DNA from: Nanobdellota archaeon
GTDB lineage: Archaea > Nanobdellota > Nanobdellia > Woesearchaeales > GW2011-AR4
Direction of reading: 5' to 3'
Assembly (NCBI GenBank): GCA_038046685.1
Contig: JBBSVT010000103.1
Span: 1-50,810 of the forward strand
DNA: 50,810 nt
The translations under genes were made by a program, and so were the position numbers. The notes beneath the pieces were generated by a model that saw only the letters and a program-made list of their open reading frames with translations, was not told the DNA's origin and did no database searches. How positions within the stretch are numbered: the first letter of the stretch is position 1; each line of letters starts with the position of its first letter. Below, piece by piece: positions 7,997-36,300 of the stretch.

Positions 7997-9835
7997 TTAG
8001 GAATATTTTATATCTCCTTTATCATCAAAATAACCTATGCTTACAGGATTTTTTTCTAAATCATCCCATTGGGGAGGTTTGACAAACTTATTTGGCAATG
8101 ATTTTATTACATTGCCCTTCTTATCCTTTGCAACTATAGTAAAGCAATATGTTTGCCCTTCTGCAAATTTGTCGCTTGGTGCATCTTCTATATCTCTAAA
8201 CTTGTGGAACGTTCTCTTTATAATTTCCATTGAATTCTTAATGTCATCTCTAGATGCAAAAGTAAGCTGTTCACATTTTTTTGAATTTGCGCATTCGTTT
8301 AAATTTCCCGTTATTTGGGTATTTTTTGAGAAGTGTAAATAATATGTCAATGGCTCGTTTATTTTAGCATTTGTCATATCATCTTCGTTCTTTTCAGGTG
8401 GATAAAATCCAACAATTATATTTCCCGGTATACCCTCTTTTTCCAGCGGAAGAGCAATGCAAGAGCTCGATAATCTTTCTTCTTTTGCGGCATCAGAATT
8501 TAAAAGGCTTATTTTTTGGATTCCTGGCGCTAAATCGTCTTTTGATATTGCAACAGATTGTTTTACGGCTTTGCCTTCTTTTTTTGCCTTACTTACGGCA
8601 GTCACAGCAAAATAGTAGCTAACGTCATCCTGAATGTTTTCTGTACCGCATTTATTTATCTCAGCTGCCCAATTTTCATAATTAACCTTTGAGCTTATTG
8701 CAAGAGTTGGTTTTAGAGATTCTAGATTTACCTCTTTGGTAGTTTTATCCTGCTCAAATTGTTTCGGTGAACAATAAATATTATAATGTTCTATATCTAA
8801 AACCTCAGAGCCATCTTCCCATTTTGCTTTGCCCCACTTTAAAACAACAGAGTTCTGCGCCTTTTGCTTATCCTCAGCAGTCAATATCATTATTGGCGGA
8901 GGCGTCAACGGATTTGGATAGGAAACGGCAAACTTGTAGACAATCGGCCTAAGTTTTACCTGAATATCAAACTTGTCATAAGCATAAAATTGTTTCTGGC
9001 TTTTTGCGCAAAATCTAAATCCCTTTATTCTTGGCAAATCCAGTATATTATTTGCTGGAAGTGGTGCTCTGAAACTCCCTTCCTGAGATTCATCTATAAA
9101 TTTAGCTTTGCCTTTTGTTTTGTATAATAAGAAGATTTTGCTTAATTTTACGCTTGAGGTCTTATCGCTGGGTTCTGCAGATACCTCATTTATATTAGGC
9201 TTTCTTGCAGTATATTTAATAGCGATATTGACAGCATCAGCTGATTTATCAGTTGCATCTTTGGTATTATAATCAGAAATAAAGGAAAGGCTTTCTTGGT
9301 TTATATAGACTGTTCCTGTAATAGTTTGTCCCGATATTAGCTCTGCTTTAATTTCTCCATCTTCACCAGTTAACCTTATGCCATATATTCTATTATATAC
9401 TTCCCTTTCATCTAAAGAAAATCTGCAGACTGTTTTATCTTGCTGATTGAGGCATTCATTAAATTTATTTACAAAATCGTATAAGATTAATATAGCTTCT
9501 TCATTAGAATCCTGTTGAGGCTCGGGACAGTTCCAATTATTCTTAAAAGCCTGTTCCTTTAGGCATTGCCCGATATCTGGATAGTCTTTGCAATTGCTTA
9601 CCGCCTTGTTTAATTCTTTGCTAATAACGGCATATTCCAAAAAATCGTAATCAACATTAATTTTAAATGAGGGGCTTATCGAGTAAGTGCCTAGCATATT
9701 GTTATTATAGTTCTGCGCTACAACTGCTCCCGTTGCAATCATGTTTTTATCAGTATAAACTACTATGCTTATCAATATTATGGGTATCAGCATTAATAAA
9801 AATAAATCTTTTGTTTCCATATTATGCAATTCCAA
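7997..9835 (-). CDS. Membrane-anchored extracellular protein with fibronectin type III-like domains
   Basis: N-terminal TM followed by ATGAVV; FN3-like VVLKW...YNIY...YYFAVTAV and a second YCFTIVAKD. Confidence 0.7.
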   Translation of the reverse strand: MELHNMETKDLFLLMLIPIILISIVVYTDKNMIATGAVVAQNYNNNMLGTYSISPSFKINVDYDFLEYAVISKELNKAVSNCKDYPDIGQCLKEQAFKNNWNCPEPQQDSNEEAILILYDFVNKFNECLNQQDKTVCRFSLDEREVYNRIYGIRLTGEDGEIKAELISGQTITGTVYINQESLSFISDYNTKDATDKSADAVNIAIKYTARKPNINEVSAEPSDKTSSVKLSKIFLLYKTKGKAKFIDESQEGSFRAPLPANNILDLPRIKGFRFCAKSQKQFYAYDKFDIQVKLRPIVYKFAVSYPNPLTPPPIMILTAEDKQKAQNSVVLKWGKAKWEDGSEVLDIEHYNIYCSPKQFEQDKTTKEVNLESLKPTLAISSKVNYENWAAEINKCGTENIQDDVSYYFAVTAVSKAKKEGKAVKQSVAISKDDLAPGIQKISLLNSDAAKEERLSSSCIALPLEKEGIPGNIIVGFYPPEKNEDDMTNAKINEPLTYYLHFSKNTQITGNLNECANSKKCEQLTFASRDDIKNSMEIIKRTFHKFRDIEDAPSDKFAEGQTYCFTIVAKDKKGNVIKSLPNKFVKPPQWDDLEKNPVSIGYFDDKGDIKYS

Positions 9836-10898
9836 TTGTTTTTGCCTTATTTTCTAATTCGTTAAAATTGCTTGCAGTTGATATTGTTTTGCCTTTAGCT
9901 CCAATCCAGTATTTTGCCGCAAATTCTCCGCTTGGAGGCATTAAATCCACATGTATGTGTGTTGAGCCTGGATAGATTCCTACTCTTGTAAACAGCTTGG
10001 GCTCTTCCTCAGTTGCTGCATTGGCCCATTTTAATTGTTCTAATTTATCTTTTCCAACATATATGTCGAGCGCAACTCCATATTGGTGCGCGCTGTTTCT
10101 GGCTCCGCCTTCTTTTTTGTTGTAGCTTGGATGCCTATAGCCGCTCGTAATGCAGCATTTTGTCGGAGTTTTAGCGCATATGCCAGGCGATGCGCCCATT
10201 CTTCTGCATAATTCGACATATTGGTTCCACACTTCCGGATGGAATGTCTTAATAGCCTCAATATCGGGATTTGATTTCATCGGAACATTAAGCTTTGTTG
10301 GAGTTTCTCCTTTAACGACTTGTTGGTATATCTCTGAAGGTTTTGTAGCTGTTATAGCTGGCTTAACAACAAAATTTTCTGGCAGAATTTCAATGACTAA
10401 ATTCTCCTCAGATCTTCCAATTATTTCAAGACGTCCTTTTAACTCATAATTGTAAAAGCCGGGAATATTGGCATCAGGATAATTTGCAAGATAATTGTTT
10501 AATTGCTCATCAAAATTTTCCTTAAAATTTTTTTTAATTTTGTCATCGGTCAGGTAGCATCCTTTGATCTTAGTGCCTTCTTTTTCTTTTTCTATAGATG
10601 CAATTACATTTGTACCCTGAAAGGCTCCGCACTCTGATTCCTCATAATAACCCATGTTATTAGCTAATTCATAGATTGTTTGATAAGCAGAGAATTCTGC
10701 TGAACGTTTGCTGTAGAGAAGTGCTTTCTCAGCCTCATTTCCGGCCTTTAGCAAAGAAAACTGGTGTTGCCCTATGTAATTGCCAATTATTCTATGGGGC
10801 AAAAAGTAAAAATCAACATAATAGGCCATGATGCCAAAAACAAAAGCTAAGATAAGAAGATACCATTGTAAACCGCTACCTTTTTTGTGTCTTACCAT
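9822..10898 (-). CDS. Class III signal (pilin-like) protein with C-terminal peptidase M15A (Zn D,D-peptidase/MepK-like) domain
   Basis: KKG followed by a hydrophobic helix at the N-terminus; ITSGYRHPSYN..GGARNSAH..GVALDI and HIHVD with the expected Zn ligands H, D, H. Confidence 0.85.
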   Translation of the reverse strand: MVRHKKGSGLQWYLLILAFVFGIMAYYVDFYFLPHRIIGNYIGQHQFSLLKAGNEAEKALLYSKRSAEFSAYQTIYELANNMGYYEESECGAFQGTNVIASIEKEKEGTKIKGCYLTDDKIKKNFKENFDEQLNNYLANYPDANIPGFYNYELKGRLEIIGRSEENLVIEILPENFVVKPAITATKPSEIYQQVVKGETPTKLNVPMKSNPDIEAIKTFHPEVWNQYVELCRRMGASPGICAKTPTKCCITSGYRHPSYNKKEGGARNSAHQYGVALDIYVGKDKLEQLKWANAATEEEPKLFTRVGIYPGSTHIHVDLMPPSGEFAAKYWIGAKGKTISTASNFNELENKAKTIGIA

Positions 10899-34886: not shown

Positions 34887-36300
34887 ATTTCCTCTTTTTA
34901 AGGATTAAGGCTGTGCTTATAATTATTGTCAAGTAAACTAAAATATTTCCATGTTTTGTATAAAAAGTTTTGTAGCTATTTACATATATCTCCCCTATTA
35001 AAATCTTTTCTTTTTCCGGCTCTATCGAGTTTACAACCTTGCCTAAAGGGTTTATAATTTGAGTTATTCCATCATTTGTGGCCCTGACAACATATTTTGC
35101 ATTCTCTGCTGCCCTTAATCTTGTGAATTGGGAGATTATTGAGTGGCCTCTTCCTAAATCCTGATTGTTAGACAAGGAAATGATAAACTGAGAACCTTTA
35201 TTCGAGTAGTCCCTTGCTATTGATTGCATTGATTCTTCATTGCACATCATAATCCCATAGAGATTGCTTTGGTGCTCAATAATTTTGAGAGCATTGCCTT
35301 TGACAACCTCCTTATCCAAAAAAAATGGTTCTGTCGAGTTGTACATATCTATGTAACCATCTGGCTTAAATACAAAAGCTGTATCTTTATATCTAACTTT
35401 ATCACTCGTATAAGATAAAGAGCCCACTATTAATGTTGTATTTAATTGTTGTGCTGTTCTTTTTAGTAATGCAGATACTGTTTTATTATCTAAAATATCC
35501 TCATTCAATGAATATTCTGGCCATATAATCATATCCGGTTTATTCTTTGAGGCTTCATAACTCATATTTAAGTATGTGTTAAGTATTAGACCAAAAGCAT
35601 TATTCTGCCGCCATTTCCATTCATATGGAAAATTTCCCTGTAACAATGCAACCTTTACTTTCTTGCCATTGTATGGGAATCCTGAATAGTTGCTGTAAAA
35701 TAGCGATGCCAAGATTATCATCAATAAAAAAACTTCAAAAAAAAGCAATATTCTGTTTTTTTTGATAAAGTAATAGGATAGGATGGAATTAGATAAGATT
35801 ATAAGAAAGGTTACACCATAACTTCCGACATACCATATTATGGGCACAGCTGCTGGTTGGAAAATTGATAAATCCATCCAATAAATTTTAATTGGCATGA
35901 TTTGATAAACAAGCAACAAAAACAGCCATATCAAAGGAGGCAATAGAATTACATAATAATCTTTTATTTTTTTAGAAAAAAAAGAAATCAAGATTAGGAA
36001 AATGGTAAAATATAGTGTAAATATCAGAATAGCAAGCATGTAAAGTTCTAAATAAAACTTAATTTTTACATTATAAACCCAATTAAAAAAAAATAATGAG
36101 GTTATTAAGCCATAAATTATGCTTAATTCTAGAATTCTTCTGCAGTTTTTTATGAAAGCAAGATAAATTAACGGGGAAAATGCTATCCAGATCAAAAAAT
36201 AAAAACCATAAGAGACGGAAACCAACATCAATATCGCTAAACCTACCAAAAAGATTTCTGATTTGTTAAAATATTTCAATATTCTAAATTTATATATCAA
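34870..36300 (-). CDS. lnt: Apolipoprotein N-acyltransferase-like protein (TM domain + carbon-nitrogen hydrolase domain)
   Basis: Multi-TM N-terminus, GSYGVTFL, VALLQGN, IIWPE, MCNE, LSNN, RAAEN..VVRATNDGIT, TFYTKHGN. The catalytic Lys is not evident. Confidence 0.82.
   Translation of the reverse strand: MIYKFRILKYFNKSEIFLVGLAILMLVSVSYGFYFLIWIAFSPLIYLAFIKNCRRILELSIIYGLITSLFFFNWVYNVKIKFYLELYMLAILIFTLYFTIFLILISFFSKKIKDYYVILLPPLIWLFLLLVYQIMPIKIYWMDLSIFQPAAVPIIWYVGSYGVTFLIILSNSILSYYFIKKNRILLFFEVFLLMIILASLFYSNYSGFPYNGKKVKVALLQGNFPYEWKWRQNNAFGLILNTYLNMSYEASKNKPDMIIWPEYSLNEDILDNKTVSALLKRTAQQLNTTLIVGSLSYTSDKVRYKDTAFVFKPDGYIDMYNSTEPFFLDKEVVKGNALKIIEHQSNLYGIMMCNEESMQSIARDYSNKGSQFIISLSNNQDLGRGHSIISQFTRLRAAENAKYVVRATNDGITQIINPLGKVVNSIEPEKEKILIGEIYVNSYKTFYTKHGNILVYLTIIISTALILKKRKYVNKI

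Follow-up and report, generated by a model that had tools for sequence, protein, structure and literature searches.

Class III-type membrane proteins encoded in one Nanobdellota locus: a candidate subunit half of a type IV filament-type machine in DPANN archaea

The Epd pilus of Methanococcus maripaludis, a 'system 1' filament, is made from many class III signal-peptide proteins encoded in one operon, has a dedicated A24-type prepilin peptidase and keeps its pilin genes at a different locus from those of its ATPase and platform. Glutamine at position +1, directly behind the cleavage site, is a feature of the Epd pilins. The Epd pilin genes together with eppA occupy MMJJ_08190-08290 and epdJKL occupy MMJJ_10560-10580 (PMC10133366). 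A similar arrangement is found for a locus at positions 7997-36300 of contig JBBSVT010000103.1 from a Nanobdellota archaeon of the order Woesearchaeales, the whole contig of 50,810 nucleotides being referred to here as the window. Its genes, named g1 (7997-9820) through g22 (34870-36300), include about 17 with class III-type products, and the locus is probably the subunit half ('fibre and accessory') of a class-wide machine of the type IV filament type in DPANN archaea. The differences from Epd are substantial: no sequence family is shared according to Pfam and NCBIfam, and giant Cys-rich proteins and peptidoglycan hydrolases occur here in addition. Furthermore, two platform genes stand beside the ATPase in system 1 as characterized in the available portion of PMC13705601, whereas the motor that synteny links to the present locus has a single platform-like gene, encoding a 736-residue protein, and an ATPase with an extended N-terminus.

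In these last two respects the motor resembles 'system 2', to which PMC13705601 ascribes one platform gene and an ATPase extended at its N-terminus, the likeness being one of description. The archaeal afGspE (2oap) is the best solved relative of the ATPase, but the platform protein here is too divergent for PF00482 and the pilin set is far larger. The tip complexes of type II secretion systems and type IV pili (GspH-I-J-K, and PilVWX with PilY1) likewise comprise several low-copy pilin-like proteins from neighbouring genes, whose heads interact (as predicted here for g14 and g15), and are associated with a large adhesin; unlike them, the present set shows no homology or fold match, belongs to a one-membrane archaeon and has four to five times more subunit types. 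PilB of Streptococcus sanguinis, as presented in the accessible part of PMC8179133, joins a pilin N-terminus to a displayed module, as do g2 and the Amidase_2 fusions of its relatives, but here the module is a cell-wall hydrolase that is swapped between lineages, and the system is archaeal. An ecological parallel comes from the GH23 lytic transglycosylases of Woesearchaeota, from which predation on or contact with bacteria was deduced (PMC9723730); the conclusion about attack on or contact with bacteria is the same, but the words 'pili' and 'pilus' do not occur in that paper, which makes no connection between the enzymes and class III signals or the present operon, and the enzyme families differ (GH23 there; M15, Amidase_2 and 3D here). 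For DPANN archaea in general, the available text of PMC13705601 states that ATPase and platform genes stay together while pilin genes are scattered, with an unclear function. No description of the operon, of the hydrolase fusions or of the motor was found in the literature, although the supplementary tables of PMC13705601 may list some of the genes.

The genome to which the window belongs, as contig C103, comprises 1.68 Mb in 119 contigs (88% complete, 0.7% contamination). Nearly all long reading frames of 7997-36300 lie on the minus strand and most gene junctions abut or overlap, by 1 to 37 nucleotides (4 nucleotides at g10/g9, g7/g6, g5/g4 and g20/g19; 1 nucleotide at g15/g14 and g3/g2); the widest gaps in the block are those ahead of g13 and ahead of g12. 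An earlier note on this DNA, made from the letters alone, had described a co-oriented locus of about 28 kb holding 17 class III signal-peptide genes of 42 to 402 residues, many of them coupled by overlaps. This observation is partly confirmed. The minus-strand string, the coupling and the 17 genes (g2-g16, g18 and g20, with K/R-K/R-G/A/S followed by a hydrophobic helix) are all present, but the smallest pilin-like product has 45 residues and the sizes go up to 402, or to 406 with g20 as called, and the string is not contiguous because 19162-24882 is inserted.

The N-terminal motif was defined as Lys or Arg, an optional polar residue, Gly, Ala or Ser, and then a hydrophobic core. It is present in 14 of the 16 products of g1-g16; g14 fits once the second methionine, the choice of the gene callers, is taken as its start and its orthologues are read, and g1 has an anchor only. 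A strict scan for [KR][KR][GA] plus a hydrophobic core across all open reading frames of the genome gave 38 matches, 10 of which fall inside the locus, that is, within 1.7% of the genome, so that the clustering of the motif exceeds chance. Among 67 orthologous reading frames from 15 relatives' loci, 64 carry [KR][GAS] no more than 12 residues ahead of a hydrophobic core; position -1 in these is Gly (33), Ala (29) or Ser (2), position -3 is Lys or Arg in 56 and position +1 is Gln in 30, the -2 residue being fixed by the search rule and the other positions free. Family alignments give the same picture, with a small residue (G/A/S) at -1 in 22/22 rows for g16, 25/25 for g15 and 23/24 of the rows reaching the position for g14 (70 of 71 in all). 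Gln at +1 is invariant in the g15 family and nearly so in the g14 family, which also conserves Glu at +3 and has five invariant cysteines, and in the short g13 type (alignment A6). A plain membrane anchor would not hold particular residues at -1 and +1, and the orthologue consensus, N-K-K-[G/A] before the presumed cut and Q behind it, thus appears to be under selection.

The gene order is conserved as well. Comparison was made over samples of 201 genomes of the class and 61 of the order (this genome and 60 others), using 20-kb stretches fetched around matches to g10, which was found in 19 of the 201 class genomes. The order giant-g18-g16-g15-g14-g13/12-g10-g7-g5-g4-g2-g1-RPA is kept in other families of the same order, a positive outcome of the synteny check that the earlier note had proposed, and the upstream order g21-g20-g19 with its RNase P p30 neighbour also recurs in relatives. 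A profile of g16 (alignment A1) matches 24 of the 27 other same-order genomes and 75 of the 201 class genomes, mostly in single copy. At the thresholds used, the homologues of g16, g15 and g14 (counts in Table 1) are all annotated as 'hypothetical' and none has a Pfam domain; their public labels are Woesearchaeota or Nanoarchaeota. No BLAST homologue of g3 was found in the fetched loci, in which a gene of similar size occupies the same position. Relatives carry the g13-like gene in tandem arrays of 2 to about 10 copies.

Neither T2SSE, T2SSF nor A24 matches any protein on the window's contig, in agreement with the earlier note, which had seen no assembly ATPase, platform or prepilin peptidase there and had placed the assembly machinery elsewhere. 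The same note had held that its reading would be refuted if the N-termini were predicted as ordinary anchors and the genome lacked a prepilin peptidase and an assembly ATPase. This refutation fails: a single A24 prepilin peptidase is encoded on contig C107 (63.3 bits) and there are several GspE-type ATPases. The A24 family was found in 58 of the 61 genomes of the order sample, and in one relative (locus L022) an A24 gene (1.3e-13) lies within the cluster itself, just ahead of RPA. The candidate motor is a pair of genes on contig C45. Its 767-residue ATPase matches T2SSE (1.9e-15), has an N-terminal extension of about 400 residues and finds its best solved relatives in afGspE (2.9e-30 over residues 226-656), CpaF (1.5e-22) and FlaI (4.7e-17). 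The 736-residue partner has eight predicted transmembrane segments and no Pfam match. Its profile-profile comparison with the genome's T2SSF proteins gave a probability of only 71% (E 3.6e-5 over 228 columns), from shallow alignments, while its nearest Atlas clusters either bear a GspF-domain name (score 0.98) or include PF00482 in a minority of their members (21% and 16%); its profile produced no match among the sequences of solved structures (best E 0.32, a receptor). On balance this leans towards membership of the GspF/TadC/ArlJ family. Same-order relatives have the two genes next to each other, with 53-66% identity, and the 736-residue protein was found in 197 of the 201 class genomes.

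The link between this motor and the pilin-like genes comes from other orders of the class, where all 12 of the 12 loci have the ATPase/736-residue pair directly ahead of a g10-like gene, with more genes of the class III-like type behind it. All seven such loci from the g10 search share one plan, namely three small membrane paralogues, the ATPase, the 736-residue protein, a g10-like gene and 8-12 genes of the K-K-G type; six of the seven end at RPA, and L024 stops at the end of its contig. Five added loci, chosen by the 736-residue protein from families without a match to the g16 profile, follow the same plan and have up to about ten tandem g13-like copies. Subunit and motor genes are separated within the present order: the motor is absent from all eight cluster loci, and pilin-like genes do not follow any of four motor loci. 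G055, a relative assembled as a single contig, has its g16 homologue, motor ATPase, platform-like gene and A24 gene at separate sites on one chromosome. The statement that the subunits are assembled by machinery encoded elsewhere is thus supported by the peptidase on C107, the ATPase and GspF-like pair on C45 and the synteny in 12 of 12 loci.

Further genes accompany the motor. In this genome as in relatives from the order, two small conserved cytoplasmic proteins are encoded divergently beside the ATPase (29384-30626 of C45). A tandem set of three paralogous genes for small membrane proteins (about 165-205 residues, with no Pfam match in the three scanned) lies upstream of the ATPase in 5/5 same-order loci and in most other-order loci; here they are found on another contig (C111:5181-6891), and examples in relatives are L019:2777-4360 and L041:4104-5813. 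These proteins, too, may belong to the machine.

AlphaFold2 models of two subunits consist of a long N-terminal helix and a beta-rich head. The model of g15 (pLDDT 90, pTM 0.74) has a 56-residue N-terminal helix and an alpha/beta head, and that of g16 (pLDDT 87.6, pTM 0.82) a 45-residue N-terminal helix, a beta domain and a helical bundle. Multimer prediction of adjacent subunits, as suggested in the earlier note, was run for one pair, the heads of g15 (residues 33-164) and g14 (residues 34-158) modelled without their membrane helices. All three runs reached an interface score (ipSAE) of 0.85, with at least 72% of contacts in agreement and a partner pLDDT of at least 84, whereas the best of three controls scored 0.20. 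The 0.85 mark is reached by 58 of 80 solved complexes and by 2 of 110 mismatched pairs, counts that apply only roughly here because the models were built on our own alignments. The prediction supports binding between the g14 and g15 heads and fits a heteromeric minor-subunit complex.

The observations on the conserved motif, on gene order, on peptidase and motor genes and on the hydrolase domains lead us to infer the following scheme. The roughly 17 class III-type proteins would be cut by the single A24 peptidase, after which the C45 motor would pull them out of the membrane and pack them through their N-terminal helices into a filament or pseudopilus. The short and duplicated g13/g12 type would be the likely bulk subunit. 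Since head domains are predicted to bind (g14 with g15 in the pair that was run), g18, g16, g15 and g14 would be the likely minor-pilin-like complex. The product of g2 would act as a 'modular pilin' presenting a peptidoglycan peptidase, and the Sec-exported giants g19 and g21 would be adhesin-like partners. The interpretation given in the earlier note, an uncharacterized multi-subunit type IV filament or pseudopilus tip complex for host recognition, is supported by these data, with cleavage, filament formation and a purpose in host recognition still being inferred. The features of the locus and of the motor pair are listed in Table 1.

Table 1. Features of the locus, of the gene that closes it and of the candidate motor pair. 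Positions are those of the window unless a contig is named; aa, amino-acid residues; IS, insertion sequence.
Feature	Position	Strand	Basis or remark
RPA gene, marks cluster end	6947..7939	-	Pfam
g1, last gene of operon, 607 aa	7997..9820	-	N-terminal anchor without K-K-G motif
g2, 358 aa, pilin-like N-terminus (K-K-G + helix) fused to Peptidase_M15_3	9822..10898	-	Pfam 1.8e-11
g3, pilin-like, 167 aa, TTG start	10898..11401	-	N-terminal motif
g4, pilin-like, 162 aa	11379..11867	-	Motif; 7 homologues in relatives' loci
g5, pilin-like, 134 aa, +1 Gln	11864..12268	-	Motif and homologues in relatives
g6, pilin-like, 321 aa, 16 Cys	12311..13276	-	Motif
g7, pilin-like, 109 aa, 6 Cys	13273..13602	-	Motif and homologues in relatives
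g8, pilin-like or anchored, 400 aa	13604..14806	-	N-terminus
g9, mini pilin-like, 52 aa	14808..14966	-	Motif; 40-55-aa genes at same position in relatives
g10, pilin-like, 402 aa, 18 Cys	14963..16171	-	First gene behind motor in other orders
g11, mini pilin-like, 45 aa	16152..16289	-	Motif
g12, short Cys-rich pilin-like, 85 aa, g13 paralogue	16282..16539	-	Homologues, family alignment
g13, short pilin-like, 95 aa, candidate major subunit	16763..17050	-	N-terminus [KR][GA], presumed cut, Q-G/S-x-S
g14, pilin-like, 158 aa from second Met	17113..17589	-	265 homologues
g15, pilin-like, 164 aa	17610..18104	-	351 homologues
g16, pilin-like, 338 aa, invariant F-N-W motif	18106..19122	-	210 homologues, alignment A1
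Insertion (x19403, outer IS, inner IS, g17)	19162..24882	.	Families, repeats, relatives' gene order
g18, pilin-like, 215 aa as called with long leader	24883..25530	-	Motif and homologues
g19, giant Cys-rich surface protein, 1687 aa	25517..30580	-	Sec-type signal; TSP3_bac 1.9e-8
g20, pilin-like, 406 aa	30577..31797	-	Motif and homologues
g21, giant Cys-rich secreted protein, 1041 aa	31761..34886	-	Sec-type signal
g22, Lnt-like gene	34870..36300	-	CN_hydrolase 6.2e-19 and LNT_N 8.3e-10, 6 transmembrane segments
Motor pair, 767-aa ATPase and 736-aa GspF-like membrane protein	G000 C45:22399-28240		T2SSE, profile comparison

Several results weigh against the assignment of the locus to a filament-type machine. 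Pfam (29 window proteins) and NCBIfam (10 subunits) gave nothing above cut-offs for the pilin-like proteins, the hydrolase domain of g2 aside, and the Pfam family Class_IIIsignal matched only 1 of 16 g13-like proteins, at E 0.11, the other Pfam results for these 16 being noise. The motif itself is not uniform, with Ser at -1 in g15, g18 and g20 and a residue other than Gln at +1 in most genes of the window. The FlaFind check proposed in the earlier note, carried out with a FlaFind-like regular expression, found 3 of the 17 genes and missed the other 14, and it also matched one spurious plus-strand reading frame; residues behind the presumed cut site are more polar here than the pattern allows. 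A loose version of the pattern was unspecific (451 matches genome-wide) and was replaced by the [KR][KR][GA] scan. Foldseek found nothing in the PDB at E <= 0.001 for the g15 and g16 models, and VIA-align listed no pilin for either, the best hits being PAS/Cache-like sensor domains for g15 (Z 5.8) and generic helical bundles, over the C-terminus only, for g16 (Z 8.9); the absence of a pilin from such lists does not show that the folds differ. The g13 profile had no match among the sequences of solved structures. On the side of the motor, PF00482 does not match the 736-residue protein at E <= 0.1, the probability from the profile comparison is modest, and co-occurrence does not discriminate, as the motor is found in nearly all genomes of the class and the g16 profile in little more than a third. 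In this genome the C45 pair is split by a Polbeta nucleotidyltransferase and a small HEPN-like gene (24662-25514), and the operon is interrupted too, so that function in this particular genome is not assured. Finally, contigs of a binned genome may be mis-assigned.

The hydrolase domains bear on what such a machine might be used for. The Peptidase_M15_3 match of g2 scores 44.6 bits against a cut-off of 23.2, and the zinc motifs H-x6-D and H-x-H can be read by eye in its translation; a search with g2 against the sequences of solved structures produced no match. At the g2/g1 positions of relatives, two proteins contain Amidase_2 (2.6e-30 and 3.3e-22) and one a 3D domain (4e-10). The other seven of the ten proteins scanned from these positions have no hydrolase domain, nor have the other proteins scanned from within relatives' clusters, a result that also weighs against the reading. 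Across the order sample, 13 Amidase_2 matches were found in 11 of the 60 other genomes; class III-like N-termini are present in 4 of 10 complete reading frames, three further frames being cut off by the fetched stretch, and at four Amidase_2 loci homologues of g1, g2 or g4 lie alongside. By their sequences, different murein hydrolases thus appear to have been recruited to the same slot, with M15, Amidase_2 and 3D interchangeable. No Mur ligase was found in the genome, which is 88% complete, and the substrate of the hydrolases is therefore probably foreign, that is, bacterial; the alternative that a hydrolase remodels the cell's own wall is weakened by the same result. With peptidoglycan hydrolases recurring in this way, the target would be bacteria. 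The likeliest use of the machine is to touch bacterial cells and breach their walls locally, a tentative proposal to which we give rather less than even weight.

The alternative that survives best, though we consider it unlikely, is that the subunits are processed class III substrates that form no long fibre but a short pseudopilus or a bindosome-like complex holding the giants and hydrolases at the cell surface, with the motor serving as a secretion or insertion device like the piston of type II secretion. About 17 distinct subunits in a fixed order suit a stoichiometric complex better than a homopolymer, many of them are large (300-400 residues) and Cys-rich, and the predicted binding of the g14 and g15 heads also fits such an assembly. 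The motor, near-universal and single-copy, resembles a housekeeping envelope system, and no retraction-type second ATPase was seen beside it in the loci examined. Against this stand the g13-like genes, which with the best conserved N-termini of the set and their tandem multiplication resemble the bulk subunit of a fibre.

A second alternative, distinctly improbable in our estimate, is a competence-type pilus that takes up external DNA for nucleotides and recombination, in the manner of the Epd pilus, which is needed for transformation in Methanococcus (PMC10133366). It draws on the neighbourhood of the cluster: wherever a locus extends to the end of the cluster, RPA is the next gene (L010, L012, L013, L016, L014 and L019-L023); in this window, behind it come a small protein and a gene labelled RadA-like by eye, with similar neighbours in several relatives. 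However, the genome has no second strong copy of RPA (for which reason a dedicated paralogue was rejected), which makes it a housekeeping gene whose place beside the cluster may be frozen synteny; peptidoglycan hydrolases and giant adhesin-like proteins would be without a role, and no DNA-binding domain was found by Pfam or NCBIfam in any subunit. ComEC has no match in the genome, but since archaea are reported to lack ComEC this is no objection to DNA uptake.

It is also conceivable, though with a very low probability, that the subunits of the locus are assembled by another module than the C45 pair. Two system-1-like loci, each with an ATPase and two T2SSF genes, are present in the genome on short contigs (C35:65-7872 and C37:103-5108), and system 1 as outlined in the available part of PMC13705601 combines two platform genes with many pilins and counts 1990 DPANN genomes with system-1 pilins. 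The Gln found at +1 in many of the orthologues, a feature of Epd pilins, speaks for the same alternative. But nine cluster-bearing genomes of the same order, 98-100% complete and one of them in a single contig, show no PF00482 match, and in these nine and in G044, where the PF00482 match is marginal, the only T2SSE match is a weaker-scoring frame of about 760 residues; the high-scoring ATPase type is thus missing from the nine as well, and the system-1-like loci are dispensable for the cluster. In addition, the pilin-like genes beside the C35 ATPase carry a motif that differs from that of the cluster, and gene order in other orders ties the cluster to the single-platform motor. The mere co-occurrence of T2SSF with the cluster was discarded as a link, as 184 of 201 genomes have T2SSF. 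The least probable alternative, that the N-termini are plain uncleaved signal anchors of type II envelope membrane proteins whose ATPase neighbourhood reflects some other shared task, can appeal to the lack of a recognized pilin family or fold, to the few matches of the FlaFind-like pattern and to Ser at -1 and the variable +1 residues, but it is contradicted by the small -1 residue in all but one of the aligned rows and the invariant +1 Gln of g15, by the A24 gene inside the cluster of L022 and by the GspE-type ATPase and GspF-like protein that lead the operon in every locus outside the order, and we regard it as highly improbable.

Returning to the filament-type machine as the preferred reading, the remaining genes of the locus can be described in relation to it. 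The two giant Cys-rich proteins noticed earlier, of 1687 and 1041 residues, were verified: g19 has 84 cysteines (5.0%), a transmembrane segment near residue 1531 and then a basic tail, and g21 has 46 cysteines (4.4%). Sec-type rather than class III signals are found at the N-termini of g19, g21 and g17, and for g19 also at those of its orthologues. An 'FN3 protein' reported in the earlier note could not be substantiated, the relevant matches lying below the Pfam cut-offs (fn3_4 in g1 at E 0.0079; fn3 in g19 at 23.8 bits against 25). Homologues of g1 lie just ahead of RPA in L016, L015 and L012. The Lnt gene mentioned in the earlier note is real by Pfam, with both CN_hydrolase and LNT_N above their cut-offs, and it overlaps both neighbours, but it is not part of the conserved cluster; as a component of the system it was rejected, since a match is lacking in all four loci of relatives in which the flanking RNase P p30 gene is present. 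An Lnt-like gene in an archaeon is possibly a bacterial import. In a second, smaller cassette, at C74:50956-56935, Cys-rich proteins of the g21 type are encoded behind a pilin-like gene resembling g20, and more g20 and g21 paralogues occur on C100 and C108.

Downstream of RPA, the window contains a pair labelled by eye as RelE/ParE-like and antitoxin-like (6345-6799), then a 98-residue protein (4745-5041) and the RadA-like gene (3684-4709), the latter label resting on a helix-hairpin-helix N-terminus. The order RPA, small protein, RadA-like gene is also seen in several relatives' loci.

The operon is split by the 5.7-kb segment between g16 and g18. These two genes adjoin directly in all six of the six relatives' loci in which both are present, which identifies the segment as an insertion into an otherwise conserved operon. 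It consists of x19403 (19403-20200), a gene without a signal peptide; an outer insertion sequence (about 20247-22952) with helix-turn-helix and rve genes and inverted repeats at approximately 20247-20274 and 22925-22952; an inner insertion sequence nested within it (about 21368-22917) with its own inverted repeats (21368-21398 and 22887-22917); and g17 (23130-24875), which encodes a beta-helix protein with a Sec-type signal. The inner element carries a plus-strand reading frame of 468 residues (21436-22842) that has no Pfam family and may be an unrecognized transposase. One end of this element (about 21350-21425) recurs at seven other contig ends of the assembly, as expected of a multicopy element that breaks assembly. 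Paralogues of x19403 and g17 lie side by side on C81 (about 24913-31106) and C33 (about 18255-19592); the two genes thus make up a multicopy cassette, of which the clusters of relatives showed no copy. The reading frames of the operon are all intact despite the insertion. A search for RNA sequencing runs for 9800-19200 listed none.

Other loci show related rearrangements. A different insertion of about seven genes separates g14 from the g12/g13 genes in L012 (G167:C1, 3435-8065), and it seems that the boundaries between genes of such operons either tolerate insertions or attract them. The parts around g16 and g10 are far apart in G030 (C1:152856 and 211125) and on separate contigs in G107 (C12 and C40) and G104 (C21 and C10), from which it follows that the operon has been split more than once.

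Archaea of the Woesearchaeota type are abundant and uncultured members of DPANN, presumed to depend on other cells. For these organisms the locus and its motor provide a concrete and nearly universal parts list: a peptidase, an ATPase, a platform, a candidate bulk subunit, a candidate minor complex, hydrolase subunits and giant adhesin-like proteins. Neither the subunits nor the platform are recognized by current family libraries, and model-based surveys may therefore under-report the filament systems of DPANN archaea. The fusion of pilin-like N-termini to murein hydrolases in the absence of a detectable murein pathway points to bacteria, in contrast to the usual picture of DPANN archaea living on other archaea. 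A more speculative proposal, which as a whole we think improbable, is that the near-universal machine of the class, with its extended ATPase, divergent platform, three small membrane paralogues and 15-20 non-interchangeable subunits, is a harpoon-like contact organ used on bacteria, carrying at its tip lineage-swapped hydrolases that open the wall of a prey or host, with a fibre that also imports DNA or nucleotides. If this were true, such import would explain the fixed neighbourhood of RPA and the RadA-like gene, and episymbiosis of archaea on bacteria, or predation on them, would be the ancestral lifestyle of the group.

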